Of a DNA stretch of 64,000 nt, positions 14,263 to 63,867 are shown one piece after another. The notes beneath the pieces are model-generated. The model made no database searches and was not told the origin of the DNA. It saw only the letters and a list, made by a program, of their open reading frames with translations. Both the position numbers and the translations under genes were made by a program. Source of the DNA: an uncultured Acidobacteriota bacterium (GTDB lineage Bacteria > Acidobacteriota > Thermoanaerobaculia > UBA5066 > Gp7-AA6); the NCBI GenBank assembly GCA_963733815.1, contig CAVTEG010000015.1:171910-235909 (forward strand), given 5' to 3'. Each line of letters starts with the position of its first letter. Within the stretch, counting starts at the first letter, position 1.

Positions 14263-14274
14263 TGGGGATGCGCT

Positions 14275-14350
14275 TGTGGGGTAGTTGAGCTGGTACAACG
14301 TCCGGCTGTTAACCGGAAGGTCGGTGGTTCGAGTCCACCCCCCACAGCCA
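14275..14350 (+). tRNA. tRNA-Asn (anticodon GTT)
   Basis: The cloverleaf was folded by hand: acceptor TGTGGGG/CCCCACA, D arm GTTG/CAAC, anticodon stem TCCGG/CCGGA with loop CTGTTAA, T arm GGTGG-TTCGAGT-CCACC, discriminator G and an encoded CCA. Confidence 0.85.
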
Positions 14351-14496
14351 GACTCGGACTCCTGGCGGCCCGCTTCGCGGGCCAACCGACGGGAGGGGAA
14401 GTCGCTCTGGGACTCTCTCCCACGGATTCGACAGGACGTTCTCGCCCCCCCTCGCTGCGCTATGCGGAGAGTCCTCGGGCTGCGAACGGAAGAGGG

Positions 14497-14967
14497 CTAT
14501 CTCCGGCCGGGCCTCACCACATCGGTCGCGGACTTTCGCTCGTTGACCGCCCAGAGCCCGAGGTGGCTGCGCCAGGCAGCCGCCGAGGCCGGCGTGAGAA
14601 CGAACTCCAGGTCGGTTCCGTCCGAACGTGAGAGACGCAGGACTTCCATGCGGAGCAGTCGGCGTCCGCTGGCGAGGCGGTCGCCGGTAACGATCTTCTG
14701 AAGGCGCTGGGTCGGGAGCGTCGTCGTTTCGCCGAAGAGGCTCTCGAAGACGATCGCGCCTCCTCCCAGTCCGAGGACTCCGGGCAGACGGCGGTGCGGA
14801 CCGGCGCAGAGCTGTGCCCGCGTCAGCAGGTCGAACGGCCGCGAGGCGTCCGCGAGAAGCCGGCTCGCAAGCCGATCCTGTGCGCGCCGCAGGAGCAGGC
14901 GCGGCAGGACCAGCACGAGCAGGACCGCGCCCGCGAGGCCGGCGAGCGCGTATCCGAGCTCAGGCAC
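14497..14967 (-). CDS. Hypothetical membrane-anchored protein
   Basis: A 156-aa ORF with an N-terminal TM helix (LAGLAGAVLLVLVLP). It has no recognisable domain, and the alternative frames are GC-artefact-like. Confidence 0.35.
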   Translation of the reverse strand: MPELGYALAGLAGAVLLVLVLPRLLLRRAQDRLASRLLADASRPFDLLTRAQLCAGPHRRLPGVLGLGGGAIVFESLFGETTTLPTQRLQKIVTGDRLASGRRLLRMEVLRLSRSDGTDLEFVLTPASAAAWRSHLGLWAVNERKSATDVVRPGRR

Positions 14968-32927: not shown

Positions 32928-33078
32928 ATCCGCGATCCAGCGTACGGCTCTCGGTCCGCCGTCCTCTGAGCCATTTGCATCAGACGTCTCGGGCCCGCTG
33001 CGGTACGATCCCGAAACCCTCGAAACCGCGCCGCGCCTTCGCGGCGTCCGGGCTCGAGCGAGCGGGAAGGAGGATGGG

Positions 33079-35062
<1,984 letters not shown>

Positions 35063-47226: not shown

Positions 47227-49080
47227 ATGAGACTCCGGATCGGTCTGCTCGTCCTCGCCCTTCTGATCGCGAAAGAGATGTCGGCCTGGACGTACTCCGA
47301 GCACCGCGCGATCACGGCGAAGGGCATCGAGTCGCTCGATCCGCGCAACCGCGCCGCACTCGACGCGCTCTGGGCTCTCGCCCAAGCGGGGGAGGCGCGG
47401 CTCTGCGAGGCCCCGGACGCCGGAGCCCAGGGGCCAAAGCCCACCTGCATCGATTTGGCGGCCTGGGGTGCGATCGCGGGAGACCACTCCTGCTCGCCCG
47501 AGGACATGTTGCGAGTCATCCTTCAAAGCGACTGGATCCTGAAGGTCGCGGGCGTGGCAGCGCGGGTGGATGAAGGGCTCGCCAAGGCCAAGAACGAGGC
47601 AATACGCACGAACGTCCGGATCGAGGGGGACCTCGGGCTGGAGCGCAACGATCCGGAATACAGCACCCGCGCCCGAGGGAACAACGCGCATTTCCTGCTG
47701 CCCCGCAAGGTCGACGACGCAGCGGAATATGCGGCCCAGTCGCTCTCCGGCGAGATCAACGCCATCGGGATCTACGTCGTCTTTCACGCGGCGGCCCTCG
47801 AGCATGCGAACCGTGCGGACGCGGACGGCGCGAGCGCCCGCCTGGCCCTGGCTCTGGAGCTTTTCGGCGTCCACTTCCTGGAGGACGCCTTCTCCGCGGG
47901 TCACATCGCCGGCTCGTGGGGCAACGCCGCCGAGCGGAAGGGGACCCACGACTACTACAACCAGCACGGCCTCGACGCGGAGAGCTGGAATCGGACGCCG
48001 ATGATTCTCTTCGGCGACGGCTACGCCCGCGCGGAGGACATCGCGCGGGCGGGAGCGGCCGTCGGCGAAAGTCTGTCGCAGTTCGTTGCCGCCGGAAGGC
48101 CGGATTCGGAGGCGGCTCGGGCCGTGGCCGGAGCGACGATCCCGGCGGCGGCCGAGGACGGAACGTTCGACGTCTGCCGCTCGACGCAGATGCCGCTGGG
48201 AAAAGCGACCGAGGGACTGAGCGTTCTCCTCGGAGAGGTTCTGCGCGAGACGCCCGTCCCGTTTCGCGGACCGGGCTATGCGTCCCTGCCTCGGTTTCGG
48301 GCCGAGATCGGTCCCTTCATCGGCGTGGCCAGCGGCGGCGCCGTGATCGGATCGGATCAGGGATTCCCGCCCGGTTCGGATGGCGCCGTACAGGGGCAGC
48401 TGGACGTGGGCGTGCGGCTGGGGCTCGGCCTCGACGCATTGCTCGGCGAGAACGGGGACGGGCTCGTGTTCGTGGAGACCGCGTTCATCAGCCAGTCGCG
48501 GTCCACTGGGGGCTGCCCCGCCTGCCAAAACGATCCGCTGGTCCAGGAGTTCGTCCCGGGAGTTCCGGCGCGGTCGGGCATCCAGTTCCGGCTGCGCCTC
48601 CCGTACTGGGTCATCCCGGGCGACCTGGTGCTTGCCGCGCCCGTGCTCGCGTTCACCAATCCCAGGCTCCTCGAGAAGATGGCCATCAAGGCCGCCGACG
48701 GCGGGCTGATTCCGTGGCAGCGTCGGATCGCTACGGACGTGGGCGCGGTCCAGTTCGTCGCCGGCCGCGAGTTCGGAGTCACACTCTTCGGCTACGGCAC
48801 CAAGGACGCGTTTCTCGCGGTCATTGGCGGCCCGAATCAGTCCGTGCTCTTACCGCTCGCGGTCAAGTCGCTCCAGTGGGATTTCCCGGTCGTGGAGTAC
48901 CGGCCTTTTCGCGAGTTCGGGACGCGTTACACATTTGCGACGTTCCTCCAGCTGGGGCTGGGCTTCGACCACCCGGTCTCGACCGAGATCGTGGGTCTGC
49001 CCGGCGTTCCGGCGCCGCAGCTCCAGAACCGCTATTTCGCGTACCTGCGGATCTACTTCGACGGTCGCCGCTACTTCTGA
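47227..49080 (+). CDS. Secreted hypothetical protein; mature N-terminus begins with Trp (possible Zn-dependent PLC/P1-nuclease-like domain)
   Basis: The signal peptide cleaves at ...KEMSA|WTYSEHRAIT. His/Asp-rich motifs occur in the first 250 aa. The C-terminal half is Gly-rich and beta-rich and ends in YF. Confidence 0.5.
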   Translation: MRLRIGLLVLALLIAKEMSAWTYSEHRAITAKGIESLDPRNRAALDALWALAQAGEARLCEAPDAGAQGPKPTCIDLAAWGAIAGDHSCSPEDMLRVILQSDWILKVAGVAARVDEGLAKAKNEAIRTNVRIEGDLGLERNDPEYSTRARGNNAHFLLPRKVDDAAEYAAQSLSGEINAIGIYVVFHAAALEHANRADADGASARLALALELFGVHFLEDAFSAGHIAGSWGNAAERKGTHDYYNQHGLDAESWNRTPMILFGDGYARAEDIARAGAAVGESLSQFVAAGRPDSEAARAVAGATIPAAAEDGTFDVCRSTQMPLGKATEGLSVLLGEVLRETPVPFRGPGYASLPRFRAEIGPFIGVASGGAVIGSDQGFPPGSDGAVQGQLDVGVRLGLGLDALLGENGDGLVFVETAFISQSRSTGGCPACQNDPLVQEFVPGVPARSGIQFRLRLPYWVIPGDLVLAAPVLAFTNPRLLEKMAIKAADGGLIPWQRRIATDVGAVQFVAGREFGVTLFGYGTKDAFLAVIGGPNQSVLLPLAVKSLQWDFPVVEYRPFREFGTRYTFATFLQLGLGFDHPVSTEIVGLPGVPAPQLQNRYFAYLRIYFDGRRYF

Positions 49081-50042
49081 GTCGGAGCGGGCGCAGGCTG
49101 ATAGGCCATCTCGCGCAGCAGCGCGATCCGCTTCAGGATCGGTGGATGCGTCGCGAAAAGGTTCGCGAACCAGCCTTCCTTCTGCTCGAGGCTGCCGCCG
49201 CGGGGATCCTCGATGCAGAGGTGCGCCACGCCCTGCTTGATCGAGGGCGTGGGCCCCTTCTCGGCGGCGATCTTCTCGAGGGCCGAGGCGAGGGCGAGCG
49301 GGTTGCGGGTCAGCTCGGCGCCAGAGGCGTCGGCGAGGTACTCGCGCTGCCGCGAGACTGCCATGGCCACCAGCTGTGCCACGAAGGGGGCGAGCAGGAT
49401 CGACACGACCCAGACCACGGCGAAGAGAAGCCCGGCCCCGCCTCCGCCTCCCTTGGTATCGCGGCGCCGGCCCAGACCCCAGCCGAACCCGCGGCGGCCC
49501 CAGTCGGAGAGCAGCAGGATCGCGCCCGCGAGCGCCGCGACGACCGTCATCAGCCGCACATCGAGATTCCGGACATGCGACATCTCGTGCGACACGACCG
49601 CCTGGAGCTCGTCACGGTCGAGCTTTTCGAGAAGCCCGCGGGTGACCGCGATCGACGACTTCTCCGGGCCGGTGCCGGTGGCAAAGGCGTTGGGGTCCGC
49701 GTCCGGGATCACGTAGATCGCCGGCTTGGGCAGCCCGGAGGCGATCGCCATTTCCTCCACGACGTTGTCGAGAACCCGCTGCGGCGGGTCGGAAGGGTCG
49801 AGCGGCGCGGCTCGAGTGGACTCCAGGACCGCCCGGTCGCCGCCGTGGAGGGACCACCAGGCCGACATGCCTCCCACGCAGAGTGCCCCGAGTGTGGCGA
49901 GGGGGAGCCCGGGCGAAAAGCCGCCCGCATAGAGCATTCCGTCGGCGCCGAGACCCAGGAAGACGAGCAGCAGGACGAAGCCGGCGATGAAGAGGCGCGT
50001 GTTGGAGATGTTGCGCTTCTGCTGCTCGTAGAGGTTGGTCAC
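49071..50042 (-). CDS. htpX: M48-family zinc metalloprotease HtpX
   Basis: HEMSHV is in a TM context and the C-terminal motif REYLAD is present. The GTG start overlaps the lemA stop. Confidence 0.8.
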   Translation of the reverse strand: MTNLYEQQKRNISNTRLFIAGFVLLLVFLGLGADGMLYAGGFSPGLPLATLGALCVGGMSAWWSLHGGDRAVLESTRAAPLDPSDPPQRVLDNVVEEMAIASGLPKPAIYVIPDADPNAFATGTGPEKSSIAVTRGLLEKLDRDELQAVVSHEMSHVRNLDVRLMTVVAALAGAILLLSDWGRRGFGWGLGRRRDTKGGGGGAGLLFAVVWVVSILLAPFVAQLVAMAVSRQREYLADASGAELTRNPLALASALEKIAAEKGPTPSIKQGVAHLCIEDPRGGSLEQKEGWFANLFATHPPILKRIALLREMAYQPAPAPTQK

Positions 50043-50629
50043 GCCCCCGGCTGCGGCCGGATGTTCAGGTCCACCTTCGGCACCGCCCTTTCGGCCGCGT
50101 CCTTGATCTCGAAGAGCTCGACGGTCTGGAACTTGAACGTCTGCGCGATGAAACTGTCGGGGAACATCTGCTGCGCCGTGTTGAAGCGCGTCGCAATGTC
50201 GTTGTAGAACTGGCGAGCGAACCCGATGCGGTTCTCGGTCGAGGACAGCTCCTCCATCAACGCGCGGACGCTCTCGTTGGCCTTCAGCTGCGGGTAGTTC
50301 TCGGCCAGGGCGAAGAGCCGCGAGAGAGTCTGGGTCAGCGCGTTTTCCTTCTCGGCGGAGTCGGCGACCCCGCGCGCGGCCACGGCCGAGTTGCGCGCCT
50401 GGATCACCTTCTCGAGCGTGTCCTGCTCGAACTGCATCTCTCCCTTGACCGCCGAGACCAGGTTGGGAATCAGGTCGTGCCGGCGCTTCAGCTGCACGTC
50501 GATCTGCTTCCACGCGTTGGCGACCTGGTTGCGCAGGCCGATCAGGTTGTTGTACCGCCAGATCGCCCACATGGCGCAAAAGACCGCGCCGACCACGAGG
50601 ATCAGCAAACAGCCGCCGATAGCTCCCAT
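50039..50629 (-). CDS. lemA: LemA family protein
   Basis: An N-terminal TM helix is followed by the conserved LemA core (NLIGLRNQV..., ENYPQLKAN). Confidence 0.85.
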   Translation of the reverse strand: MGAIGGCLLILVVGAVFCAMWAIWRYNNLIGLRNQVANAWKQIDVQLKRRHDLIPNLVSAVKGEMQFEQDTLEKVIQARNSAVAARGVADSAEKENALTQTLSRLFALAENYPQLKANESVRALMEELSSTENRIGFARQFYNDIATRFNTAQQMFPDSFIAQTFKFQTVELFEIKDAAERAVPKVDLNIRPQPGA

Positions 50630-50691
50630 CTGTTGCGGGTTCCTCCGTTGAAAGTTACGAAAAACCGGGGAAGAAGTTCAGTGCGTCCGGC

Positions 50692-51816
50692 TCACGCATT
50701 GAGGCCCTGGCGCAGCTCGCGCGCCAGGATCTCGACGGCGGAACGGGTGCCTCCCGTGAGCTTTTCCTTCCAGACCGTCTCGGTCTCGAAGCGGCGGTCG
50801 CCGATCGCCTCCGCCCACGGGCGCAGCGCCGCGTCGAGCTCTCCCGCCGACCAGACGTCGCCGCCCCGCTTGCGGACCATCGCGATGACGTACGGAACGA
50901 TGCGGATGAACGCCCGGAGCGACGTCGAGCTCTTGATCGAGTACTTGCGTCCGGCGAACGCCGCGGGAAAGGCCCGTGCCGCGGCTTTGAAGTAGTTGAG
51001 GAAGAAGCGCCGCGCGTTCTCCCGGAACTCCCGGGCGACGCGGCCCCCCGCCGTATCGACCGCCGCGAAGACGTCGCGCAGCTCGTCGGCGAGCGAGGCC
51101 TGCGTGACCGATCCTTTTCCGATGCCGAGCACCTTGATGGAGCCCTTCAGAGGCGAGCTCTCGTCTTCGTTGAGCGTGCGGATGACGTCGTGGGCCGCCG
51201 CGAGGTTCTCGTCGCGGTAGAGGCGGCGCCCCGCCAGCGAGATCAGGTGCGAGGGATTCAGCTTCGTGTGCTTGCTGTTGATGGTGACGAAGAGCTCGAC
51301 GACCTGGTCCGGCGTGAGGTTGTCGAACACCACGGCGGGGACCTGGAAGTCGCGGAGATTGTGCTTTTCGGCGATCTGGTGGAGCGCGAGGAGCCGGTGC
51401 TGACCGTCCAGGGCGCGGAGGATGCCGGACTCTTCGGGAAGCTTCAACGAGCCGGCGTCGGCGCGTCCCCCGGACGGGGTGAACTCCAGGCGCTTCTCCG
51501 AGACGAGGAGCACGCTGCCCGGGATCGCCGGCAGCGAGCCGGCGTCGGCCTGCTGGAGGTAGTAGGCCACGAGCTCGTCGATCTTCTTCTTGATGATCGG
51601 ACGCTGAAACGCGTGCTCGGACGCCGCGATCTTCTTTTCCAGGAGGTCCCAGTTCACCCGCCCCGCCGGTTTGTGCTTGCCGCGGGTGGTCTCGCTGCCG
51701 GGGCCGAAGGAGAGGACCTCGAAGCCGACCAGGGACTGCAGATCGGCGCCCGAGAGCAGGGCCTCGTAGAAGCGGACGCCGAACTGGTTCAGGCGAAGCG
51801 AGGGAACCGAAATCAT
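50692..51816 (-). CDS. DGQHR-domain protein (DndB-like family), stand-alone
   Basis: The LDGQHRLLAL motif has flanking conservation. The start is MISVPSL. The upstream 54 codons of the track ORF translate the heptamer palindrome and are non-coding. Confidence 0.7.
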   Translation of the reverse strand: MISVPSLRLNQFGVRFYEALLSGADLQSLVGFEVLSFGPGSETTRGKHKPAGRVNWDLLEKKIAASEHAFQRPIIKKKIDELVAYYLQQADAGSLPAIPGSVLLVSEKRLEFTPSGGRADAGSLKLPEESGILRALDGQHRLLALHQIAEKHNLRDFQVPAVVFDNLTPDQVVELFVTINSKHTKLNPSHLISLAGRRLYRDENLAAAHDVIRTLNEDESSPLKGSIKVLGIGKGSVTQASLADELRDVFAAVDTAGGRVAREFRENARRFFLNYFKAAARAFPAAFAGRKYSIKSSTSLRAFIRIVPYVIAMVRKRGGDVWSAGELDAALRPWAEAIGDRRFETETVWKEKLTGGTRSAVEILARELRQGLNA

Positions 51817-51921
51817 GTCCACCTCCTGGCCCGCGGGTGCCCTCCGGACGCGGGTCGCCGGTAGGGCGGCGCAAAGCGTATACCGGCTTTTTGGCGATTG
51901 AGCCCAGGAGATTTCAGCCGC

Positions 51922-51993
51922 CGTTGCAGGTTGCAGGTTACAGGTTGCAGGCGGGATCCGGCCCCCTGAAACCTGCAACTTGAAACTTGCAAC
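51922..51993. promoter_or_regulatory. Large imperfect palindrome built from tandem GTTGCAG-like heptamers in the divergent DGQHR / MFP promoter region
   Basis: GTTGCAGGTTGCAGGTTACAGGTTGCAGG ...14 nt... CCTGAAACCTGCAACTTGAAACTTGCAACC. Confidence 0.4.
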
Positions 51994-52340: not shown

Positions 52341-53135
52341 ATGGAACCTCCGGAAACGATAGCATTCCGGCGTTCGTCCGACACCGTGAAAAGAGTCCTG
52401 TTTTCGGGCCTTCTCCTGCTCGGCCCGGGCTTGCGCCCGGCCGCGGCGCAGGACCGCGTGTACGCGTCTCACCTGATGGTCGACCAGGACGTCGCGGTCG
52501 CGTCGCGGATCTCGGGCGTCATCGCGTCGATCGCCGTGGACCGCGGAGCGGTCGTGACGCAGGGGCAGGAGCTCGCCGCGCTCGATCCTCGCGAGGCCGA
52601 CGCCGACGTGCGCGAGGCGAAGGAAGACATGGAGTTGAAGAAGGCCGAGCACGCCCGGGCGGAGTCGCTGGCCGCGTCCAAGATCACGAGCGCGGCGGAC
52701 CTGGACGAGAAGAAGGCCCAGTACGCCGTGGCCACGGCGCGGTGGGAGAAGGCCAAGACGTTGCGGGACTACACCGTGATCCGGGCGCCCTTCGCCGGTG
52801 TGGTCACCGAGAAGTACGCCCGCATCGGCCAGAAGGTCACCGAGGACAAGCCCGAGCCCTTGTTCAAGATCACGGCGGTCGAGCCCCTGCTCGCCCGGAT
52901 CTATCTGCCCGAGGAAGAGCTGCTCCGCGTCAAAGTCGGGGACCGCGTCGACATCGTCGCCGAGCGATTCCCGGACGTGAAGACGACCGGCGAGGTCCAG
53001 TTCATCAGCCCGACTGTGGACGCCGCGAGCGGGACCTTCCAGGTCGTGGTTCGGGTCAAGCGGGAGCCCGCGCGTACGGTGCTGCGGCCCGGCATCGCGG
53101 TCCAGGTGCGGTTCCCCAAGGCCGCGGCGAAGTAG
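52341..53135 (+). CDS. HlyD-family periplasmic adaptor (membrane fusion protein), short form
   Basis: An N-terminal anchor or signal (LFSGLLLLGPGLRPAAA) is followed by a biotinyl-lipoyl-like segment, a coiled coil and a beta-barrel segment. Confidence 0.7.
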   Translation: MEPPETIAFRRSSDTVKRVLFSGLLLLGPGLRPAAAQDRVYASHLMVDQDVAVASRISGVIASIAVDRGAVVTQGQELAALDPREADADVREAKEDMELKKAEHARAESLAASKITSAADLDEKKAQYAVATARWEKAKTLRDYTVIRAPFAGVVTEKYARIGQKVTEDKPEPLFKITAVEPLLARIYLPEEELLRVKVGDRVDIVAERFPDVKTTGEVQFISPTVDAASGTFQVVVRVKREPARTVLRPGIAVQVRFPKAAAK

Positions 53136-53151: not shown

Positions 53152-53872
53152 CATGCCGCCGACCGCTCCCCGCACCTCCGCCCGTCTCCGGTCGGCCCGC
53201 GACCGTGTGCTCGTGCACGACATCAAGAACATGTCCTTCCGGCTCCGGCTGCTGCTGTCCAATCTCGACGAGCACTGGGAAGACCCCGACTTCCGCCGGA
53301 CCGTCCGCGACCTGCTCGCCTCCTGTGTGGAGCGGCTGGAGGGAATCGCAGGCCGGTTCGTGGAACGCGAGGATGCGGTTCTCATCAAGGTGGCCCTGGA
53401 CGTCAACGATCTGCTGCGCCAGGTCGCCGAGCTCCCGGGCCGCAGGTCGGGCCGAAAAGGCGCGGAGGCGAGTCCCGGCGTTTCCCTGGCACTCGGAGAT
53501 GCGCCTCGAATCTGGGGGGATCCCTACTACCTCGCCGACGCCGTGGCGAGCCTGGTCGACAACGCCTGCGAGGCCGCGGCGCCGGCAGGCCGCGTGCTCA
53601 TGAGGAGCTTTTCCGCCGGCAGCCCGCGCCGACCCCGGGCCGTCATCGAAATCATCGACAATGGAGCCGGGATGACTCCCGAGTTCCTGCGCGATCGGCT
53701 CTTCCAGCCCTTCGAGACAACCAAGCCGCAGGGCGTGGGACTCGGTCTCGCGACCGCCAACCAGATCGCTCGCCTGCATCGCGGGACGATCCGGGTCCTG
53801 AGTCAGCCCGGCGGCGGTACCCTCGTGCGGCTGTCCTTTCCCGGGATCCCGGCCGAGCCGGGCGAGGCCTAG
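53152..53872 (+). CDS. Cytoplasmic sensor histidine kinase (no sensor domain)
   Basis: The H-box is LVHDIKN, and the N/G1/G2 boxes are present (DNACEAA, IIDNGAGM, GVGLGLA). Confidence 0.75.
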
Positions 53873-54145
53873 CAGGTTGCTGAAAGAGGGTGTGGGATGG
53901 CGTTACGAGCGCCACGGGGTCAGATGCAAGGAAGCGCGACGACGGCGATGCCCTTGCATCGTCGAGGAGCGATGACGATGCAGATGGCCCCGCGCCGCCG
54001 TAACCCGAAGGGTGGACGGCAATTTGCCGGCGGCCGCTCAATCGCGATAGAGCACCGAGTCGCAACACTTTGGAACGGGCGCCGGATGCAAATTGCCGGA
54101 CACGACACCCGCATCCATCTTTCAGCGGCCTGCTAGGAGGCGCGC

Positions 54146-55523
54146 GGTGGGCGGTCAGGCCGAAGGCGCGATCGGCCGCATCCTCATCGTCGAGGACGAC
54201 GAGGTTCTCCTCGAGCAGCTGACCTGGGCGTTGAAGGGCAAGTTCGCGGTTTCGTCGGCGCGCGACGCCACGCATGGCAAGGCCCTTTGCGACGCGGAAC
54301 CGGACCTCTTTCTTTTCGACATGCGCCTGCCTCCGTCGCAACAGGTCCAGGAGGGGCTCGAGTTGTTGCGCCACGCGCGCCGGCGCGACCCGGAGGCCAC
54401 GGTCGTCATGATGTCGGGCGAAGGGGAGAGGGGCGACGCCCTGAAGGCGATCGCCCTGGGCGCCTTCGACTTCTTTCAGAAGCCGATCGACACGGCGGAA
54501 CTGCTGGTGATCCTGAACCGCGCTCTCGAGCGCCGGCGTCTGATGTCCGAGAACCGCGAGCTGCGCCGGGCCGTCTCCCAGCCGGCCGTCTCCGAGCGTT
54601 TGATCGGCGAGAGCCCGGCGCTGCGCCGCTTGAACAGCGAGATCGACCGTGTCGCCTCCGGCGACGCGACCGTGCTGCTCCACGGCGAGAGCGGCACCGG
54701 CAAGGATCTGGTGGCCCGGACGATCCACGCGCGCAGCGGACGCCGCGACCGCCCCTTCGTCGCCGTCAACGTGGCGGCGATGCCGGAAACGCTCGTCGAG
54801 GCGGAGCTGTTCGGTCACGAAAAGGGAGCCTTCACCGGAGCCATCGCATCGCGTCCCGGGCGCTTCGAGCTCGCGCACGGCGGCACGCTGTTTCTCGACG
54901 AAATCGGCACGCTCTCGCCGGCGGCCCAGGCGAAGCTGCTCCGCGCCATCGAAAGCCGGGAGGTCGAGAGAGTCGGCGGCCGCCGCGCGATCCCGGTGGA
55001 CTTTCGCCTGATTTCGGCCACCAATGAGGATCTGGAGGCGCGGGTGGGCGCCGGGAGCTTCCGGGAGGACCTGTACTACCGCATCAACACGATCCCGATC
55101 CGGATTCCGCCTCTGCGGGAGCGAGGCGACGACGTCGCGCTGCTGGCGCGGCACTTCCTCGGAGAGCTTCGCGCCAAGCATGGCCGGGGACCCACGCGCC
55201 TCTCGGAGGCGGCCCTGGCGCGCCTCTCGGCGCATCCGTGGAGAGGCAACGTCCGGGAGCTCCAGCACGCGATCGAGACGCTGGTGGTCTTCGCCGAAGG
55301 TGACGAGGTCGTCGAGGAGGATCTGCCGCGGGCCCTCCGGGAGCGCGCCTCGCCAAAGGCCGTCCACGCGTCGACGTCGTTCGCCCAGGCCGTCGAGGAC
55401 TTCGAGCGGCGACTGCTCTCAGACGCGATCGCCGCGGCCGGCGGCGTGAAGGCCGAGGCGGCGCGCAAGCTGGGTCTCGATGCGAATCAGATCAAGTATC
55501 TGTGTCGGAAATACGGGCTCTGA
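54146..55523 (+). CDS. Sigma-54-dependent response regulator (NtrC family)
   Basis: It has a receiver domain, an AAA+ sigma-54 activation domain (GESGTGKD, GAFTGA, ESELFGHEKGAFTGA-like) and a C-terminal Fis-type HTH. The GTG start has an AGGAGG RBS. Confidence 0.9.
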
Positions 55524-55648: not shown

Positions 55649-55664
55649 TGGCGCGAACCTTGCG
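55649..55664 (+). promoter_or_regulatory. Sigma-54 (-24/-12) promoter: TGGCGCGAACCTTGCG
   Basis: It matches YTGGCACGrNNNTTGCW with the GG and GC correctly spaced. It is followed by RBS AGGAGGG and ATG 55697. Confidence 0.6.
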
Positions 55665-55696: not shown

Positions 55697-56218
55697 ATGG
55701 CGAACGAAGTCAAGATCAAGCTGACGGACGCGCAGAAGGAAAAGATCCGCGAGGCCACGGGCAAGGACATGCCCGAGATCCGCGTGGAGAGCTTCGGAGG
55801 CAACGCCGCGCTGTCTCCGACGACGAAGGTCGTCTCGGCTCGCGCGATGGGCAAGTCGATTGGCGCGCGGGCGACGGGCAAGTCGGTCGGCGCTCGGGCG
55901 ACGGGCAAGTCGATTGGCGCGCGAGCCACGGGCAAGTCGGTCGGCGCTCGGGCGACGGGCAAGTCGATTGGCGCTCGGGCCACGGGCAAGTCGGTCGGTG
56001 CGCGGGCGACGGGCAAGTCGATTGGCGCTCGGGCCACGGGCAAGTCGGTCGGTGCGCGGGCGACGGGCAAGTCGATTGGCGCGCGGGCGACGGGCAAGTC
56101 GATTGGCGCGCGGGCCACAGGCAAGTCGATTGGCGCTCGGGCCACAGGCAAGTCGATTGGCGCTCGGGCGACGGGCAAGTCGATTGGCGCTCGGGCAACG
56201 GGCAAGGCCCAGTTCTAA
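55697..56218 (+). CDS. Leader-plus-tandem-repeat small protein: about 50-aa amphipathic leader followed by 14 units of ARATGKS(I/V)G
   Basis: Translation gives MANEVKIKLTDAQKEKIREATGKDMPEIRVESFGGNAALSPTTKVVS, then 13 full nonapeptide units plus a terminal ARATGKAQF. It has no Cys, no signal peptide, a strong RBS and a sigma-54 promoter. Confidence 0.7.
   Translation: MANEVKIKLTDAQKEKIREATGKDMPEIRVESFGGNAALSPTTKVVSARAMGKSIGARATGKSVGARATGKSIGARATGKSVGARATGKSIGARATGKSVGARATGKSIGARATGKSVGARATGKSIGARATGKSIGARATGKSIGARATGKSIGARATGKSIGARATGKAQF
55838..56215. repeat. 27-bp in-frame tandem repeat (x14; 54-bp higher-order period over the first 8 units)
   Basis: Repeats of the form GCGCGGGCGACGGGCAAGTCGATTGGC. 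The I and V variants alternate at first, then five consecutive I units follow. Confidence 0.8.
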
Positions 56219-56240
56219 GGAACCCGCTTCACTTCGAAAC

Positions 56241-56269
56241 GCCCCGCTCCGGCGGGGCGTTTCTCTTTT
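56241..56269 (+). terminator. Rho-independent terminator (functional in both directions between convergent genes)
   Basis: A GCCCCGC-tccg-GCGGGGC stem is followed by GTTTCTCTTTT. Confidence 0.6.
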
Positions 56270-56273
56270 GCGT

Positions 56274-58463
56274 TCACCACGCCACGGACTGCACCCAACG
56301 CTTGAGCACGCGCCACGCGCGCGCCGCGTAAGAGGCGCGCCTTCCATAGATCTTGGCGTAACCGTGCATTCCGGCGTAGAGGCTGCCGTCCTCGTTGTCA
56401 AAAACGGCGAGGGCCACGAAACGCTCGGGCTGCTCCTGGGGCGCCGAGGGATCCGCATTCGCCGCGGCGGTCTTGGGTTGTGCGAGGGCGGCCGGGGCGA
56501 TCGAGACGATCGTGCCGTGAACGGGCCGCGGATGCCCGAGGAAAAGCGCGGTGACCGGCGCGTTCGGCACGAGATCTTCGAGAAGACGTTCGGAAACGGT
56601 CAGGTCCGCCGCCATCCGCCGGTCCTCGCCGACCTCGGCGAGAAGAGTCCCCGCGGGCACGGAGCGCCCTTCGAGGTCGCGTACGTAGGGAGTCAGCAAG
56701 TGCCCCGTCGAAGGGCTCTTCACCAGCAGGCGCTCCTCGCGGGCACGTCCGTTCTTCAAGGCCGCGTCGAGGGAGACGCCCCGGGTCTCGGATGCGAAGA
56801 CGCGCGCCGGCTCGGCGGCCTGCCGCGCCAGGCTCGCGTCGCGCGTCGCGCGCTCGCGCTCGGAAGTGAGCCGCTTCGTCGCTTCCGACGCGGCCGCGCT
56901 GACGAGCTGGAAGACCGGCTGCCCGGCCGTCACGCGATCCCCCTCCTGGGCGAGCGCGCGCGTCACGACCCCGTCTTCCGGAGCCTCCAGTCGGATCGTC
57001 ACCGTGGGCCGGAGCAGGGCGGGTGAGCGGAGTGTGCGCCGGCTCCAGGGGAGGAAGAACAGCAGGGCGAGCACGGCGGCGCCGGCGAAGAGCGCCGCGC
57101 GGATACGGTGCGACATGAGCAGCTCCTTCTTGTCGAGATAGAAGAGATGGCCCGTGCGCGTGACCAGGCGGACCCGCTTGCGAAAGAGGCGGTACAGCGT
57201 CAGGACCAGGAGCACGATCGCCCAGTTCGGGAAGAAGTGGTGGTAGAGGTTGTAGAGGAGCCCGCCGATGAACCGCATGACGACGCCCACCCACGCCAGC
57301 GCGAGCGAGCCGAAGATCCAGTAGATCCGGCGCTTGCGCCGTGAGACCAGGGGCACCTCGACGGGAAGCCTCAGCACGTATCGCTGGAAGCACGCCCCGA
57401 TGTAGCGGAACGATTCCTCCCGCAGGTCCGGAATTTCGAGCACGCTCGAGAGCGCGTAGTAGCCGTCGATCTTGATGAGCGGGTTGATGTTGAAGAAGAC
57501 CGTCGAAACTCCCGTGAAGAGCATCGTCTTGAACGCGATCTCGTGCACAAGAGTGTCGGGATAGGAGACCACCCACGCGAGCGTGGCCACCGAACACATG
57601 ATGGCCTCGATGTAGATGCCCGCCGTCGTGACCCAGAGCCGGTGCCACTTGTTCGTGAAGAGCACCGAGTCGGTCGTGTCGCAGTAGAACGCCGGCGTGA
57701 AATAGAGGAGCGCCAGGCCTATGTCGTGGACTTCGCCGCCGTAGATTTTGGTGACGTACGCGTGCGAGAACTCGTGGAACAGTCCGATGAAGGTCAGAAT
57801 GCAGAAGAACTGCACGACATCGAGAAGTGGTTTCGACGTCAACGCGTAGAGCTCGATCGTTCCGCTCCAGATCGCCCCCCAGTGCACGAGGATGACCCCG
57901 AAAGCCCAGCCGGCGAAGATCAAAGCCGCCGCCACGACGGGAGGCGTCCAGATCCAGCGCACGTACTTCACGGTCCGGTCCAGGAAGCGGTTGGGGTCGA
58001 GGACGTGGAAGAGCAGGAAGAACGGGTTGAAGCCCTCGGCCTTCTCCTCGGCGGCGCGCTGGCGGGCCGTCTTCGCGTTCGCGAGGAGCTTGAGGTTCCT
58101 CTCGGCCGCGGACTGCGCGATGAGGCCCATCTCGCGGAGCATTTCCGCGTACTCGCGGACGACGGCCATCTCGATCTTCTCGCGTGGGAACATCGCCTGG
58201 TACTCGGCATGGATCTGCGCCAGCGTCCGCGTCCCATCGAACATCTGGCAGAGCCCCCACTCGGGGTCGTCGAAGTTGTAGTACTTCGTGGTCTCCGGGT
58301 TCTTCACGACCCAGTTGATCTCGCCGAGCTGCACGACGCGCCGGATCACCGCGTCCGATCGGATGGCCGGGCGGTCGCTGGCGATGCCGTGACGGGCCGC
58401 GAGGGCCGCCGCGCCTTCTTCCGGGCGCGTGGCGGCGAGCAAACGTCCGGGGCGCGCGCTCAC
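56274..58463 (-). CDS. Tri-domain protein: PqqD-like RRE domain - M50/S2P-like zinc metalloprotease - HlyD-like adaptor
   Basis: The GTG start overlaps the upstream stop (GTGA). The N-terminus IRRVVQLGEINWVVKNPETTKYYNFDDPEWGLCQMFDGTRTLAQIHAEYQ...EYAEMLREMGLI fits the PqqD/RRE profile. The membrane core has HEFSHAY (HExxH) and NPLIKIDGYY (S2P NxxPxxxLDG motif). The C-terminus has a biotinyl-lipoyl-like segment, a coiled coil and a beta-barrel segment. The 384 codons of the track ORF upstream of the GTG overlap the neighbouring gene and are spurious. Confidence 0.75.
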   Translation of the reverse strand: MSARPGRLLAATRPEEGAAALAARHGIASDRPAIRSDAVIRRVVQLGEINWVVKNPETTKYYNFDDPEWGLCQMFDGTRTLAQIHAEYQAMFPREKIEMAVVREYAEMLREMGLIAQSAAERNLKLLANAKTARQRAAEEKAEGFNPFFLLFHVLDPNRFLDRTVKYVRWIWTPPVVAAALIFAGWAFGVILVHWGAIWSGTIELYALTSKPLLDVVQFFCILTFIGLFHEFSHAYVTKIYGGEVHDIGLALLYFTPAFYCDTTDSVLFTNKWHRLWVTTAGIYIEAIMCSVATLAWVVSYPDTLVHEIAFKTMLFTGVSTVFFNINPLIKIDGYYALSSVLEIPDLREESFRYIGACFQRYVLRLPVEVPLVSRRKRRIYWIFGSLALAWVGVVMRFIGGLLYNLYHHFFPNWAIVLLVLTLYRLFRKRVRLVTRTGHLFYLDKKELLMSHRIRAALFAGAAVLALLFFLPWSRRTLRSPALLRPTVTIRLEAPEDGVVTRALAQEGDRVTAGQPVFQLVSAAASEATKRLTSERERATRDASLARQAAEPARVFASETRGVSLDAALKNGRAREERLLVKSPSTGHLLTPYVRDLEGRSVPAGTLLAEVGEDRRMAADLTVSERLLEDLVPNAPVTALFLGHPRPVHGTIVSIAPAALAQPKTAAANADPSAPQEQPERFVALAVFDNEDGSLYAGMHGYAKIYGRRASYAARAWRVLKRWVQSVAW

Positions 58464-60919
58464 GGCAGAAGCGGCCAGATCTTGTTCCAGAGATACCGGA
58501 GAGGCTTCCGGAACAGCGCCGTGATGACGCGCCGCGTGCCGACGGAGACCTTGCCGTTGCCGAGCATGCCGGTCTTCAGCCTCCCGTCGGAATTCGGAAC
58601 GGCCACCTCGGCGATCAAGAAACGCTGGTCGCCTTCCTCGCGGATCCGGGGCGCGACGCGGGCGACTTCTCCACGGAAGAGCGTCCCGGGGTAGGGGTTG
58701 AACTTCAAAGCCGTCTTCTGGCCCGGCCGGACCAGGGCCGCGTCGGCCTCGGGAACGGCGACCTCGGCCGTTACGGTGCGAACGTCGGCGACGACGCAGA
58801 GCTCCGCGCCTCGCGGAAGAAGCTGACCGACCCTCTCCTCGATCCGCGGAGTCACGATGATGCCGGCGGCAGGTGCAGTCAACCGGGTGCGCGACAGGCG
58901 GTCTTCGGCGAGAGCGATGCGCGCGCGGGCCTCGCGCCGGCGCGCCTCGGCGTCGAAAACAGCGCCGGCGTCCGCATTCTGGCGCGACCGCGCAACGTCG
59001 ACGTCCGAAAGCGCCAGCGCCGACTTGGCCTCCGCCAGCGCGGCCTGGTAGCTCTCGTCCTTCAACGTCGCGATGACGTCGCCGGCCTCCACACGGTCGC
59101 CCTCCCGCCGCAGCACGGCGCCGACGACGCCGTCCACCATCGACGTGACGGCGGCGCGGCGGCCCGGGAGGACCCGTGCGGGCCCGGTGATGCGCAGGGG
59201 CCACGGTGCGACGAACAGGATCAGGGCGGCGACGGCCGCGCCGATTGCCCATCGCCGTCGGCGGGACAACGGGATCGCCGAGAGCTTGCGCTGCTTCTCC
59301 AGGAGCGGTTTCCAGAAGCCGGCCAGCGGCACCTGCTGGTAGAGCTGCGCATTGCGGACGGCCACGGTGGCCTGGTTGACCAGGATCGACAGGAGGTCTC
59401 GCGTCTCCTCTTCGAACACCAGCGGCTCCTTGCTCTCGAATCCGAGAGCGCCGAGCTTTCCTTCCTCGTCCTTGAGGAGGACGCCGTAGAACGACCTCAT
59501 GCCCGTTTCCTGGAAGATCGCCCGGAACTTCTCCTCGGTCTCGGGCCGGTCGGCGGTGATCGCGCCGTCCTCGGTCTGCGTCACCGCGGTGTCGGTCCCG
59601 GAGAGGAAGATCCACTGAAGCAGCTCTTCCATCCGCCGGGCCTCGGGGTTTTTCCGGTCCACCTCGGTCGTGCCGGAGAGCGCCCCCAGCCGCAGCTTCC
59701 CCTTCTCCTGGATCGCAATCCCGCAGCTGTCATAGTGGATCAACGCCGAGGTGGCGTTGACGATCGTCTGCATGACCTTGTCGAGATCGAGCGTGGCCGT
59801 GATCTCTCGGGACACGGCCAGGAGCGCGTCGAGCTCCTCGACCTTCTTCTCGGCCTCGTGCTGCCTCGCCGTCCGCAGGGCCCGGACGGCCTGGCGGGCG
59901 ACGTCCTGCAAAAGCTCCTCGTCCTCGGCCGAGAACTCGGGGTGCCGGCCGCGCTTGTTGGCGAGGACGAGCGCTCCGATCGTGATTTCTTCTTCGACGA
60001 GAGGCGCCGCCAGGACCGACTGGATCGGATAGCCGGTGTCCTCCTCCGCCCCCGGGTCCCCGGCGGGAATGCGGTTGCGCCGTACGGACGTCTGATCGGC
60101 GATGACGTCGCCGACGATCGAGGCGCCGACCGCCTCGGGCGCCGGGGTGACGTCGTAGTTCTCGTTGACGGCAGTGGCGGCCAGGTTGACCTCGCCCTTC
60201 GCGCTGTCGAGCACCCAGAGCGACGCCGATTCGGCCGTGACGAAGTCCGCGGCCTTGCGAACGATCAGCGCGGACAGCTCGTCGGTGTCGATCGTCGAGC
60301 CGAACGCCTTCGAGAGGTCGTAGAGGTTGGTCAGCCGCTCGATCGCGTGGAGCATGCCGACGGTCTTGCGCTCGGACCGCAGCGCCCGTCCCAGAGCCGG
60401 CGCCGCCTGCTCGAGGAATCTCTCCAGGCGCGCCAGCGCGTCTTCGGCGTCGGGCATGTGGCTGAAGTAGAGAGCGAGGAGTCCCACCACAAGGCCCTCG
60501 GCGTGGAGCGGCACCGCGAGGCAGGCGCGGAGCGTCGGGGGCAGCCCCCGCACGAAGGGATCGGAGGTTGCCAGCTCTTCTCCGGTCAGGACGATGGCCT
60601 GACGATCGCGGACCAGGTCATGGATGATGCCGGTCTCGCGCGGCGCCGATCGCCTCAGGAGCTTGTCGACTCCCGGGCCGGAACCCGCGATGCAGAGGAA
60701 CAGGGGATGAACGGTGTCGGGAGCCCAGAGCAGCGCGGCCTCGGCACCGGTCATGGTGATGCTCCATCGCGCCGCCCATCCCGACGTCTGCGAGAGGTTC
60801 TCGCAGAGGGCCAGCTCGGCGAGAGCCGAGACCTCGTCTTCGGACCCCGAGACGTGGTGCTCGGACTCGTCGGCCTCTTCGACCGGTTCGTCTTCCGTAT
60901 CTTCGGGCTCGTCCGCCAT
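58460..60919 (-). CDS. Triple-GAF-domain protein fused to a TM segment and a HlyD-like adaptor
   Basis: An acidic N-terminus is followed by three GAF-like modules (about 60-480 aa), a TM helix (WAIGAAVAALILFVAPW) and an MFP-like C-terminus (biotinyl-lipoyl-like segment, coiled coil, beta-barrel). Confidence 0.75.
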   Translation of the reverse strand: MADEPEDTEDEPVEEADESEHHVSGSEDEVSALAELALCENLSQTSGWAARWSITMTGAEAALLWAPDTVHPLFLCIAGSGPGVDKLLRRSAPRETGIIHDLVRDRQAIVLTGEELATSDPFVRGLPPTLRACLAVPLHAEGLVVGLLALYFSHMPDAEDALARLERFLEQAAPALGRALRSERKTVGMLHAIERLTNLYDLSKAFGSTIDTDELSALIVRKAADFVTAESASLWVLDSAKGEVNLAATAVNENYDVTPAPEAVGASIVGDVIADQTSVRRNRIPAGDPGAEEDTGYPIQSVLAAPLVEEEITIGALVLANKRGRHPEFSAEDEELLQDVARQAVRALRTARQHEAEKKVEELDALLAVSREITATLDLDKVMQTIVNATSALIHYDSCGIAIQEKGKLRLGALSGTTEVDRKNPEARRMEELLQWIFLSGTDTAVTQTEDGAITADRPETEEKFRAIFQETGMRSFYGVLLKDEEGKLGALGFESKEPLVFEEETRDLLSILVNQATVAVRNAQLYQQVPLAGFWKPLLEKQRKLSAIPLSRRRRWAIGAAVAALILFVAPWPLRITGPARVLPGRRAAVTSMVDGVVGAVLRREGDRVEAGDVIATLKDESYQAALAEAKSALALSDVDVARSRQNADAGAVFDAEARRREARARIALAEDRLSRTRLTAPAAGIIVTPRIEERVGQLLPRGAELCVVADVRTVTAEVAVPEADAALVRPGQKTALKFNPYPGTLFRGEVARVAPRIREEGDQRFLIAEVAVPNSDGRLKTGMLGNGKVSVGTRRVITALFRKPLRYLWNKIWPLLP

Positions 60920-60971: not shown

Positions 60972-61307
60972 TCAGAAGCTGGAGACCGCGGCCTCCATGT
61001 CGTCGTGGATCTCGAACACCGAGTCGAGCTTGGTCATCTGGAGGAGCTTGCGAATCTGGGGGCCGGCGCGGAGGAGCTTGGTCTGGCCCCCTTCCTTCTG
61101 CGACTGCGTCAGCGCCCGCACCAGAGCTCCGAGGCCCGAGCTGTCGAGGAAGCCCACGCCCGAAAGATCCACGAGCAGACGGGTATGGCCCTCCTCCAGC
61201 AGACGCGTGACGGTCTTCTTGAAGGTCGACTCGGCGTCGCCGATGACGAGGTCTCCCGTCACGGTCAGCACCGTTACGGAGCCGTCTTCATGAGTTTGAA
61301 GTTCCAT
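60972..61307 (-). CDS. STAS-domain protein (anti-sigma-factor antagonist SpoIIAA-like)
   Basis: A 111-aa ORF. The LVDLSGVGFLDSSGLGALV motif contains the conserved phosphorylatable Ser region. Confidence 0.8.
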   Translation of the reverse strand: MELQTHEDGSVTVLTVTGDLVIGDAESTFKKTVTRLLEEGHTRLLVDLSGVGFLDSSGLGALVRALTQSQKEGGQTKLLRAGPQIRKLLQMTKLDSVFEIHDDMEAAVSSF

Positions 61308-63179: not shown

Positions 63180-63441
63180 GGGCTTCTTCAGAAAATCGTT
63201 GGGAGTCCTTTTCCGATGGTTTCCGGCAAATCCGTAAGGGCCCTCACCCCGTACAAGACGAGGAGGCAGGAACCGAGTTCGGGGCGTCCGGAGGCTTGAA
63301 ACCGGGGGAGCGGCTATAAGATCTCGCGATTCAACCGGTCCGGTACGCGAACCGGGTTGGCGAGTCACTCGACGAGGCCATGGCGGTCTCGCCGATTCGT
63401 TGGGGAGCCCCCGCAAAGGGGGCAACGAAAGGAGACCTTGG

Positions 63442-63867
63442 ATGAAGAAGGGTGATCTGACGGTGAAGGCTCTCGGCCTCGCGGTCGCGGGCGTCCTCGC
63501 AGGCTCCGGCCTGATGGCGGCGCTGCCGGCCGGCGGGGTGAAGGGCGACGAGGCGAGGCCGGCTTCGACCGACGCGAAGGCCCAGGACAAGGCGGGCGCG
63601 ACGTCGGACAAGCACGTCTGCAAGGGCCAGAACGCGTGTAAGGGCAAGGGCGGCTGTAAGGCCGGCGACAACGGATGCGCAGGCAAGAACTCTTGCAAGG
63701 GCAAGGGCGGCTGCGCTTCGGCCGACATGAAGCACTCCTGCAAGGGCATGAACTCGTGCAAGGGCCAGGGCGGCTGCAAGAGCGGCGACTCCGGTTGCGC
63801 GGGCAAGAACTCTTGCAAGGGCAAGGGCGGCTGCGCGGTTCCGGTGGCTCCGAAGAAGGCGGCCTAA
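63442..63867 (+). CDS. Secreted 12-Cys repeat peptide (two tandem 6-Cys units), candidate metal-binding or RiPP metallophore precursor-like
   Basis: The signal peptide is MKKGDLTVKALGLAVAGVLAGSGLMAA. The core contains two copies of xCKGxNxCKGxGGCKxGDxGCAGKNSCKGKGGCA. A good RBS AAAGGAGA is present. Confidence 0.65.
   Translation: MKKGDLTVKALGLAVAGVLAGSGLMAALPAGGVKGDEARPASTDAKAQDKAGATSDKHVCKGQNACKGKGGCKAGDNGCAGKNSCKGKGGCASADMKHSCKGMNSCKGQGGCKSGDSGCAGKNSCKGKGGCAVPVAPKKAA

Follow-up and report, generated by a model that had tools for sequence, protein, structure and literature searches.

A leader peptidase-like RRE-M50-membrane fusion protein polypeptide and its sigma-54-linked repeat gene in an uncultured Acidobacteriota bacterium

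The DNA analysed here, referred to below as the window, is a stretch of 64,000 nucleotides of contig CAVTEG010000015.1 from an uncultured Acidobacteriota bacterium of the Thermoanaerobaculia. It carries a gene whose 729-residue product consists of three parts: a cytoplasmic domain with the fold of PqqD and of the RRE, the element that recognises leaders of RiPPs, peptides that are made on ribosomes and modified after translation; a core of the site-2 protease (S2P) or M50 type with seven transmembrane (TM) segments; and a periplasmic membrane fusion protein (MFP) domain of the HlyD type. We describe this fusion gene, the small repeat gene that converges on it and the gene module to which both belong, and we weigh what the system may do.

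Results

The fusion gene and its product

Translation of the window gives one uninterrupted frame of 729 codons at positions 56274-58463 of the minus strand. Its GTG start (58463-58461) shares bases with the TGA stop (58462-58460) that closes the GAF-HlyD gene upstream (sequence CTGCCGTGAGCG), and the overlap on which the original prediction based translational coupling can be read in the DNA. A mechanical list of open reading frames (ORFs) extends the frame further 5'; homologues start at the GTG or near it. The gene and its parts are as follows.

56274-58463, minus strand: RRE-M50-MFP fusion gene, 729 residues, GTG start, stop codon 56274-56276
58128-58355, minus strand: predicted leader-binding domain of the RRE/PqqD fold, residues 37-112
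57045-57995, minus strand: seven-TM S2P-like M50 core, residues 157-473, from hydropathy, the positive-inside rule and profile matches
57762-57776, minus strand: HEFSH zinc-binding and catalytic motif, residues 230-234, with H230, E231 and H234 invariant
57462-57485, minus strand: NPLIKIDG motif with the third zinc ligand D333, residues 327-334, with N325, P328, K331, D333 and G334 invariant
56277-57044, minus strand: periplasmic HlyD-like MFP domain, residues 474-729, with lipoyl, alpha-hairpin (residues 523-578) and beta-barrel subdomains

The best match of the protein among the NCBIfam models was the daptide intramembrane metalloprotease NF041824 (residues 49-425, E 7e-49, 167 bits, cut-off 300), against which ten distant relatives scored 147-243 bits. 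The YydH/LiaK model NF058609 followed with E 2e-9 and 38 bits (cut-off 225). Pfam Peptidase_M50 (PF02163) reached 21.9 bits, under its cut-off of 27.2, and matched 26/26 diverse family members at E<=0.01 (best 1e-7), while a profile of the family matched the Methanocaldococcus jannaschii S2P structure 3b4r with E 0.007. The segments HEFSH (residues 230-234) and NINPLIKIDG (325-334) together make up the HExxH plus NxxPxxxDG pattern with its three zinc ligands. Seven residues of this pattern (H230, E231, H234, N325, P328, D333 and G334) were invariant in 69 close homologues and also in 26 homologues at 22-33% identity, so that the motifs cannot be due to chance. Homology to S2Ps is therefore argued from sequence, namely from the curated models of RiPP proteases, the match to 3b4r, the M50 matches of the relatives and the invariant residues.

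Hydropathy predicts seven hydrophobic TM segments. According to the positive-inside rule, the loops 327-379 (10 K/R) and 428-451 (7 K/R) are cytoplasmic and the short uncharged loops periplasmic, which would place the N-terminus in the cytoplasm and the last 256 residues in the periplasm. By the same two methods, HEFSH and NPLIKIDG lie at the cytoplasmic leaflet, each at the cytoplasmic end of a predicted TM helix, in agreement with the claim that they are embedded in such helices. An AlphaFold2 model of the whole protein (mean per-residue confidence score, pLDDT, of 80; alignment of 69 homologues) shows a TM helix bundle with a beta-hairpin at 248-261 following the RRE. At its C-terminus, the model has an MFP with a two-helix hairpin at 523-578; Pfam HlyD_3 and HlyD_D23 exceeded their cut-offs, and NCBIfam RND_mfp matched residues 479-706 with E 2e-13. 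Lipoyl, alpha-hairpin and beta-barrel domains are all present on the periplasmic side. The MFP that had been postulated for the C-terminus is thus confirmed, with a length of about 256 residues instead of 300.

The N-terminal domain gave faint signals in sequence searches. The PqqD model TIGR03859 matched residues 51-114 with E 0.005 and 16.7 bits (cut-off 46), PF05402 matched 4/26 diverse relatives (best 3e-5), and a search of the PDB with the single protein returned lipoyl-domain noise and a non-significant PqqD match only. Since a profile of the N-domain found PqqD (3g2b) in the PDB at no better than E 0.099, the RRE assignment rests on the fold. In the full model, strands 39-45, 48-55 and 60-65 are followed by helices 66-72, 81-91 and 99-111; this three-stranded sheet with three helices, similar to a winged helix, superposes on solved RREs. 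For a separate model of residues 25-135 (pLDDT 82.5), solved RREs were the only confident Foldseek matches. The N-terminal region is thus modelled as RRE-like, as had been predicted, though the domain spans residues ~37-112 and not the first 90. Taken together, sequence, profile and fold analyses uphold the reading of the protein as an RRE joined to an intramembrane M50 core and a HlyD-like adaptor.

The convergent leader-repeat gene

Directly downstream, a small gene on the opposite strand runs towards the fusion gene.

55697-56218, plus strand: cargo or precursor gene, 173 residues; leader of residues 1 to ~38 (nt 55697-55810), then GARATGKS[IV] repeats
55838-56206, plus strand: tandem array of a 27-nt (9-residue) repeat in the cargo gene, 13.7 copies (Tandem Repeats Finder)
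55649-55663, plus strand: sigma-54 promoter element TGGCGC-N5-TTGC, 33 nt before the start codon (ATG) of the cargo gene
56236-56263, no strand assigned: GC-rich terminator hairpin where the cargo and fusion genes converge, with 9 GC pairs in its 12-bp stem, followed by a T tail

The product in the window consists of MANEVKIKLTDAQKEKIREATGKDMPEIRVESFGGNAALSPTTKVV followed by ~14 copies of GARATGKS[IV]. A Shine-Dalgarno sequence precedes the gene, and no sigma-70-like site was found upstream of it. Within the window alone, the number of matches to the sigma-54 pattern was not significant (4 vs 1.8 expected), so the weight of the element comes from its conserved position: it lies 28-64 nt upstream of the cargo gene in 70/71 unique orthologous loci.

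A leader-repeat gene converges right after the fusion gene in 70/70 Thermoanaerobaculia loci with at least ~400 bp of downstream flank; ten further loci, in which no cargo gene was seen, end too early to count. Homologues of the fusion gene therefore do neighbour small ORFs, and they do so wherever this could be checked. The first ~38 cargo residues are strongly conserved, with the consensus MANEVKIKLTDAQKAKIKEATGKDMPEIRVESLGSNPAV. Across ~90 loci the leader is kept at the protein level while the repeats differ completely, their unit varying from genome to genome with periods of 3-21 residues (most often 9, 8, 6 or 5) that are always whole codons and keep the frame. The cargo was cationic by net charge in 61/71 cases and anionic in 8/71; A, R, S, G, K and T dominate its composition, and aromatic residues and Cys are nearly absent. 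It is a small hydrophilic protein with no TM segment. The final 3-5 residues depart from the repeat pattern (e.g. ...GKASF, ...KSSV, ...RSNL), and the last one was V, L, F, I, M or Y in 46/74 proteins compared with 12% in the repeat body. This hydrophobic C-terminus may be a recognition or stability signal.

No Pfam or NCBIfam model matched the cargo of the window above threshold, and NCBIfam holds no model for any cargo or leader. A query with the leader retrieved only 7 proteins from a collection of 5.8 billion, though ~90 of the loci examined carry the gene; evidently, gene callers skip or truncate such low-complexity repeat genes. In four loci (L018, L020, L022 and L066), the arrays run into out-of-frame tails rich in Arg, Gly and Pro, probably owing to assembly or frameshift errors in the repeats or to real decay.

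More distant systems also carry leader-bearing genes. In the distant soil loci, direct reading of the DNA that separates the fusion gene from the sigma-54 regulator showed small genes with Lys-rich leaders of the form M.IQKKSLIS..KKAI.A.. or MAKK.K..KKLEKK.., which precede short repeats (TAAPR, GGPNKLT, AMKHAALKV, KGTLA, QTAKHPGL) or 33-40-residue peptides. In other phyla, highly acidic repeat proteins of 1246, 713 and 1012 residues lie beside the trio of GAF-MFP, fusion and short MFP genes. The leaders of the repeat proteins from Thalassomonas (MAKQKTSKILKTKVESQVSKLEDRIAPGG), Desulfobaculum (MKKKPGKGIEKLEDRIAPGM) and Bacteriovoracaceae (MAKRKKSPKLKSKKLEERIAPGM) all show a K-rich N-terminus with KLE[ED]RIAPG (e.g. 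KKLEERIAPG). The metagenomic peptide MSGQKDQVRIQLTPEQKAMIKTATGKDAEALELSVNELEERIAPGPLGGGR of locus L132 unites both leader styles, as it holds 'IxLTxEQKxxIKxATGK' together with 'ELEERIAP'.

The same locus encodes, at 183-514 of its plus strand and upstream of the family member, two short peptides of 44 and 51 residues that end in ELEERVAPRTVF and ELEERIAPGPLGGGR. They have a daptide-like leader motif and almost no core; the product of some systems may be either the leader itself or a tail that is very short.

The conserved gene module

The remaining genes of the module in the window are the following.

58460-60919, minus strand: GAF-GAF-TM-MFP partner gene, 819 residues, translationally coupled to the fusion gene
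60972-61307, minus strand: STAS-domain protein, first gene of the operon, 111 residues (Pfam STAS, E 4e-20)
54093-55523, plus strand: sigma-54-dependent response regulator (NtrC/PrsR-like) with Response_reg, Sigma54_activat and HTH_8; start codon uncertain
53153-53872, plus strand: short histidine kinase, 239 residues, H-box VHDIKN, without a sensor domain (HATPase_c, E 5e-20)
52341-53135, plus strand: short MFP, ~264 residues, HlyD_D23 and HlyD_3, with RND_mfp at 152 bits, above cut-off; start codon uncertain

The N-terminal hydrophobic segment of the short MFP is read as a signal peptide, and the response regulator scored 446 bits against TIGR02915, under the cut-off of 503. The conserved module thus comprises STAS, GAF-MFP, RRE-M50-MFP, short MFP, the sigma-54 two-component pair and the sigma-54-driven cargo gene. 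The order in the window is shared with two annotated Thermoanaerobaculia chromosomes (L001 and L002): the genes for STAS, GAF-GAF-TM-MFP and RRE-M50-MFP follow one another, and those for the short MFP, the sensor-less kinase and the sigma-54 regulator, together with a small unannotated gene, converge on them. By tblastn, the GAF-MFP, the sigma-54 regulator and the short MFP were found in every Thermoanaerobaculia locus with enough flank, the GAF-MFP being kept directly upstream of the fusion gene in all of them. STAS was present in 72/82 loci, and those without it were mostly short of upstream flank. The histidine kinase occupies the same position in L001, L002 and a third locus (L087). With its GAF domains, its STAS protein and a kinase that lacks a sensor, the module may be under further control in the cytoplasm.

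In soil metagenome loci whose fusion protein is ~30% identical, the order is GAF-MFP, short MFP and RRE-M50-MFP, with the sigma-54 regulator converging; STAS, found in most of those loci that have enough flank, mostly lies on the opposite strand upstream of the GAF-MFP; in a few loci it is placed differently or was not detected. In Thalassomonas haliotis, the genes for GAF-MFP, RRE-M50-MFP and short MFP are joined by one for a TolC-like OEP, Bacteriovoracaceae have three MFP-type genes and two OEPs, and Desulfobaculum has the trio. An outer-membrane factor (OMF) was adjacent only in two of the distant lineages examined, Thalassomonas and Bacteriovoracaceae. No ABC, RND or MFS transporter was found in six annotated neighbourhoods (L001, L002, L083, L084, L086 and L087), and an ABC ATPase lay near the module in just 3/166 loci. 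Searches with Pfam and NCBIfam detected no C39 peptidase or ABC ATPase domain in the fusion protein or its conserved neighbours, and an Rfam scan of 51.5-62 kb gave no match.

Before its GAF domains, the GAF-MFP partner (58460-60919, minus strand) begins with a strongly acidic stretch of ~30 residues, MADEPEDTEDEPVEEADESEHH; the cargo is here mostly polycationic. Genes for an M48 (HtpX-like) peptidase, LemA and a DndB-like protein (49071-51978, minus strand) adjoin the module and are syntenic in L001 and L002. As they are absent from the distant loci examined, they probably reflect lineage synteny and do not form part of the system.

Distribution of the family

More than 584 close homologues of the fusion protein were found, and the best 120 are all full length. 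They carry public names such as 'putative peptide zinc metalloprotease protein' (JGI, KEGG-style) or 'HlyD family efflux transporter periplasmic adaptor subunit' (NCBI). A scan of species-level genomes gave 106 relatives, the best 80 of which come from metagenome-assembled genomes (MAGs) of Thermoanaerobaculia/Acidobacteriota; the one exception bears the label Acidithiobacillales and may stem from faulty binning. When the RRE+M50 half was used in an exhaustive HMMER search, this returned 10,282 clusters at 50% identity with E<=1e-3, and 1,576 with E<=1e-30. All three domains were present in 104 of the best 150 cluster representatives; most of the remaining ones are shorter than 640 residues and may be fragments. 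Ten relatives at 28-37% identity all matched the daptide_HExxH and MFP models. A second homologue search added members from Bdellovibrionota/Oligoflexia, Planctomycetota, Poribacteria, Chitinispirillia, Blastocatellia, Terriglobia and Magnetococcus, with Desulfobaculum xiamenense and Thalassomonas species as cultured carriers. The architecture as such is spread over Acidobacteriota, Bdellovibrionota, Planctomycetota, Desulfobacterota and Gammaproteobacteria.

Judging from shared assembly prefixes, two MAGs each hold two paralogues of the fusion gene (L015 with L039, and L030 with L081), and some genomes may contain several modules, each with its own cargo. Beside the complete module of L087, a stand-alone RRE-like and M50 protein of 378 residues with HELGH and without an MFP is encoded at 13464-14600 of the plus strand, perhaps as an intermediate in the evolution of the family or as a second protease.

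Other features of the window

A 155-residue protein (63400-63867, plus strand) has an N-terminal hydrophobic segment resembling a signal peptide, repeated CKG.N.CKGKGGC motifs of Cys, Gly and Lys, and no Pfam match. Because an ORF of 141 residues in the syntenic locus L001 adjoins genes for MbnB_TglH_ChrH (DUF692) and HvfC_N, the protein looks like the precursor of a Cys-rich, MNIO-modified RiPP of the bufferin type; the window ends before the enzyme genes. Another protein, of 617 residues (47227-49080, plus strand), also begins with a signal-peptide-like segment and has no Pfam match, and a Pfam-less protein of 655 residues is similarly placed in L002. Two further genes appear unrelated to the fusion gene: one (31497-33941, minus strand) encodes a Ser/Thr protein kinase joined to a domain of the universal stress protein type, the other (22370-23806, plus strand) an HTH-Peptidase_M78-ScfRs regulator.

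Discussion

On balance, we hold it to be reasonably probable that the 729-residue protein forms the core, in the inner membrane, of a system in which a repeat polypeptide is processed, and probably also exported, in dependence on its leader. In such a system, the sensor-less histidine kinase and the sigma-54 response regulator would activate the sigma-54 promoter of the small gene, a wiring that is borne out by conservation. The precursor, as read from the sequences, is made up of the ~38-residue leader (MANEVKIKLTDAQKAKIKEATGKDMPEIRVESLGSNPAV) and a hypervariable, mostly cationic tail of tandem repeats. The cytoplasmic RRE, whose fold is seen in the structural model, would then bind the leader, by analogy with lasso B1 proteins and the daptide peptidase MpaP; the domain co-occurs with a conserved leader. 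Thereby, the precursor would be offered to the zinc site (H230, H234 and D333, with E231 as the base) at the cytoplasmic leaflet, and the S2P core would remove the leader near the conserved [FL]-G-x-N-P-A boundary. These two functions, leader binding by the RRE and leader cleavage by the protease, are the most likely ones. Finally, the fused MFP, the GAF-TM-MFP and the short MFP might build an adaptor tube that takes the repeat polypeptide across the periplasm to a TolC-like channel. Export by the three MFPs is the least secure step because no energy-coupling component is visible. Of the 'processing-secretion design' that had been suggested for the protein, the three-domain architecture stands, and the exporter is an inference, with no energising transporter nearby and an adjacent OMF in two distant lineages only. 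The reading as a whole draws on the architecture and topology of the protein, on catalytic residues that stay invariant down to 22-33% identity, on the daptide peptidase as the closest curated model, on the strict gene linkage in Thermoanaerobaculia and its recurrence in soil loci and other phyla, on the L132 peptide with both leader styles and on the 104 of 150 representatives that have all three domains.

Several observations weigh against this reading. Near the module, neither a transporter of the ABC, RND or MFS type nor an ATPase is conserved, so there is nothing visible to drive export, and a TolC-like gene was detected neither within 7 kb in Acidobacteriota loci nor elsewhere in the window by tblastn, a search of low sensitivity. 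The RRE sequence matches are weak (E 0.005-0.1), and the agreement between the Thermoanaerobaculia leader and the ELEERIAP motif is loose. The cargo is transcribed from a unit of its own, which converges on that of the fusion gene. Furthermore, S2Ps normally cleave hydrophobic TM segments, and the cargo is hydrophilic, unlike these usual substrates.

The lack of an energising transporter in or near the module and of an OMF in the Acidobacteriota loci (with the sensitivity just mentioned) would suit a protein that serves maturation only. Here the RRE-M50 part would remove the leader in the cytoplasm or the membrane, in the manner of MpaP or YydH, the MFPs would not build a conduit but act in the periplasm as scaffolds, in oligomerisation or as sensors, and the product would stay inside the cell or leave it by an unlinked transporter; in fact, the proteases of daptides and epipeptides function without MFPs. 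Such an arrangement does not readily account for three distinct MFP-type proteins that are kept together across phyla, for the full alpha-hairpin of the MFP, a type of hairpin by which AcrA, MexA and MacA dock to TolC-type channels, or for the TolC-like genes that are adjacent in two lineages. We consider maturation without export unlikely, though worth keeping in mind.

Most S2Ps that have been characterised, such as RseP and SpoIVFB, are signalling proteases, and the conserved parts of the module include STAS, GAF and a two-component system. It might thus be supposed that the M50 core carries out regulated intramembrane proteolysis in a feedback loop of STAS, GAF, kinase and sigma-54 regulator, with the repeat protein not as a secreted product but as a regulator or decoy that is cleaved to tune the pathway. 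However, no gene for an anti-sigma factor or an extracytoplasmic function (ECF) sigma factor was found in the annotated loci L001 and L002, the small protein has no TM segment, and the RRE fold indicates recognition of a leader peptide. Hypervariable tails, ranging from 33-residue peptides to 1246-residue proteins, would also be ill-suited to a conserved regulatory partner. A signalling device is therefore quite improbable in our view.

Under the names that it bears in public annotation, from NCBI and JGI ('HlyD family efflux transporter periplasmic adaptor subunit'; 'multidrug resistance efflux pump'), the protein would be an ordinary efflux-pump adaptor with its N-terminal two thirds as an unusual membrane anchor. 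Although the MFP domain is genuine, this annotation accounts for the last third only, and we reject it as very improbable given the invariant HExxH and NxxPxxxDG motifs, the RRE fold, the absence of an adjoining pump gene and the strict linkage to a leader-bearing gene. One could also take the repeat ORF for tandem-repeat DNA that does not code and is open by chance, the fusion protein having another substrate, but this is scarcely credible and was likewise rejected: the small protein lacks a family match, its leader found just 7 proteins in the large collection and some arrays are frameshifted in MAGs, but the leader is conserved as protein across ~90 loci while the repeats change completely, the Shine-Dalgarno sequence, ATG, sigma-54 promoter (70/71) and terminator are in place, and the periods are whole codons in a kept frame.

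If the leader-dependent processing and export system is as proposed, it may further represent a new class of envelope-spanning secretion system in diderms, an idea that we offer tentatively and with more doubt than belief. Its parts would be the RRE-S2P-MFP, the GAF-TM-MFP, the short MFP, usually STAS and, where encoded, a TolC-like channel, with an intramembrane metalloprotease in place of an ABC, RND or MFS pump as the inner-membrane component. The RRE would select the leader, and the cargo would be intrinsically disordered tandem-repeat polypeptides of extremely fast evolution, from peptides of 30 residues to acidic proteins of 1250, switched on by sigma-54 in Acidobacteriota.

RRE-guided leader recognition has so far been a hallmark of RiPP tailoring enzymes in cytoplasmic biosynthesis; if our reading is true, diderms would have it built straight into an adaptor assembly that spans the envelope. 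MFP/TolC-type conduits could then pair with an inner-membrane partner other than an ABC, RND or MFS pump, and their energisation would become a testable question. Moreover, a regulator and a machine for their handling could be assigned to many hypervariable repeat polypeptides with a leader tag, a large class of products; in soil Acidobacteriota and in predatory or marine bacteria, these might serve as matrix components, as polycationic antimicrobials or as surface coats. The family is large (~10,000 clusters at 50% identity for the RRE+M50 half), and its annotation as an efflux adaptor is uniformly wrong. As the family occurs in the cultured Thalassomonas haliotis and Desulfobaculum xiamenense, experiments are feasible.

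Comparison with known systems

Like the signalling S2Ps RseP, SpoIVFB and MjS2P, the fusion protein has HExxH in a TM helix together with NxxPxxxDG. It differs from them in the absence of PDZ and CBS domains and in its presumed substrate, a soluble leader-bearing peptide and not an anti-sigma factor. Tripartite adaptors (AcrA, MexA, MacA, EmrA, ZneB) have a lipid or single-TM anchor and an RND, ABC or MFS pump as partner, whereas here the anchor is a seven-TM protease and no pump partner lies nearby. A homologous MFP domain is found in type 1 secretion (HlyBD-TolC) and in peptidase-containing ABC transporters (PCATs) with accessory proteins of the HlyD type (exporters of bacteriocins and microcins such as CvaAB-TolC and ComAB). 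The PCATs are also alike in their logic, as a protease built into an export apparatus of MFP and, in some cases, OMF recognises an N-terminal leader and cuts it. Their protease is, however, a cytoplasmic C39 cysteine peptidase on an ATP-driven ABC transporter with a separate MFP, while the present one is an intramembrane zinc protease that forms one chain with the MFP and has no ABC protein encoded with it. The stand-alone RREs, PqqD and the B1 proteins of lasso peptides, share only 11-14% sequence identity with this RRE; B1 is partnered with the cysteine protease B2, whereas the RRE is here fused to a membrane protease.

YydH/LiaK resembles the fusion protein as a membrane protease of the M50 type with HExxH that matures a small ribosomal peptide, and the two share a KEGG-style name at JGI. 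The match is nevertheless weak, as the scores given above show. YydH has no MFP, and its system contains a radical-SAM epimerase and an ABC transporter.

The closest curated model is that of the daptides, whose leader peptidase MpaP is an RRE fused N-terminally to an intramembrane S2P (PMC10028931). The fusion protein has the same arrangement of an N-terminal RRE and an M50/S2P core with HExxH, and the ELEERIAP/KLEDRIAP of cargo in this family resembles the motif ELExMEAP that accompanies RRE-S2P fusions in daptide leaders (PMC10028931). Nevertheless, its 167 bits are well short of the equivalog cut-off of 300, and it has a C-terminal MFP, the partners GAF-MFP, short MFP and STAS, and a hydrophilic repeat cargo. 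Daptide clusters, known from Actinomycetota and Bacillota, comprise an aminotransferase, a dehydrogenase, a methyltransferase, an ABC transporter and hydrophobic cores ending in Thr (PMC10028931). None of these four genes is among the ORFs of the window or the neighbours in L001 and L002, and the cargo ends in F, V or L and is hydrophilic, unlike the daptide precursors. Membership in the daptides was rejected on these grounds: the score below the NF041824 cut-off, the absence of the other genes and the dissimilar cargo.

The original prediction could not place the protein in a described family. This was right for the added MFP and the gene module and wrong for the RRE-S2P fusion, which is already described (MpaP, NF041824). 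No paper or curated model was found for the M50-MFP fusion, the GAF-MFP partner or the leader-repeat cargo in sources that cover subscription journals thinly, so that an earlier description is possible; the daptide paper was the one relevant find. The fusion protein and the RRE-S2P leader peptidase of the daptides are distant paralogues, the former having gained an MFP domain. What was known is thus the RRE-S2P fusion, and what is new, within the sources searched, is its C-terminal fusion to an MFP and the surrounding module. The protein is best filed as a putative RRE-guided intramembrane leader peptidase with an acquired periplasmic adaptor domain, encoded in a widespread sigma-54-controlled module.

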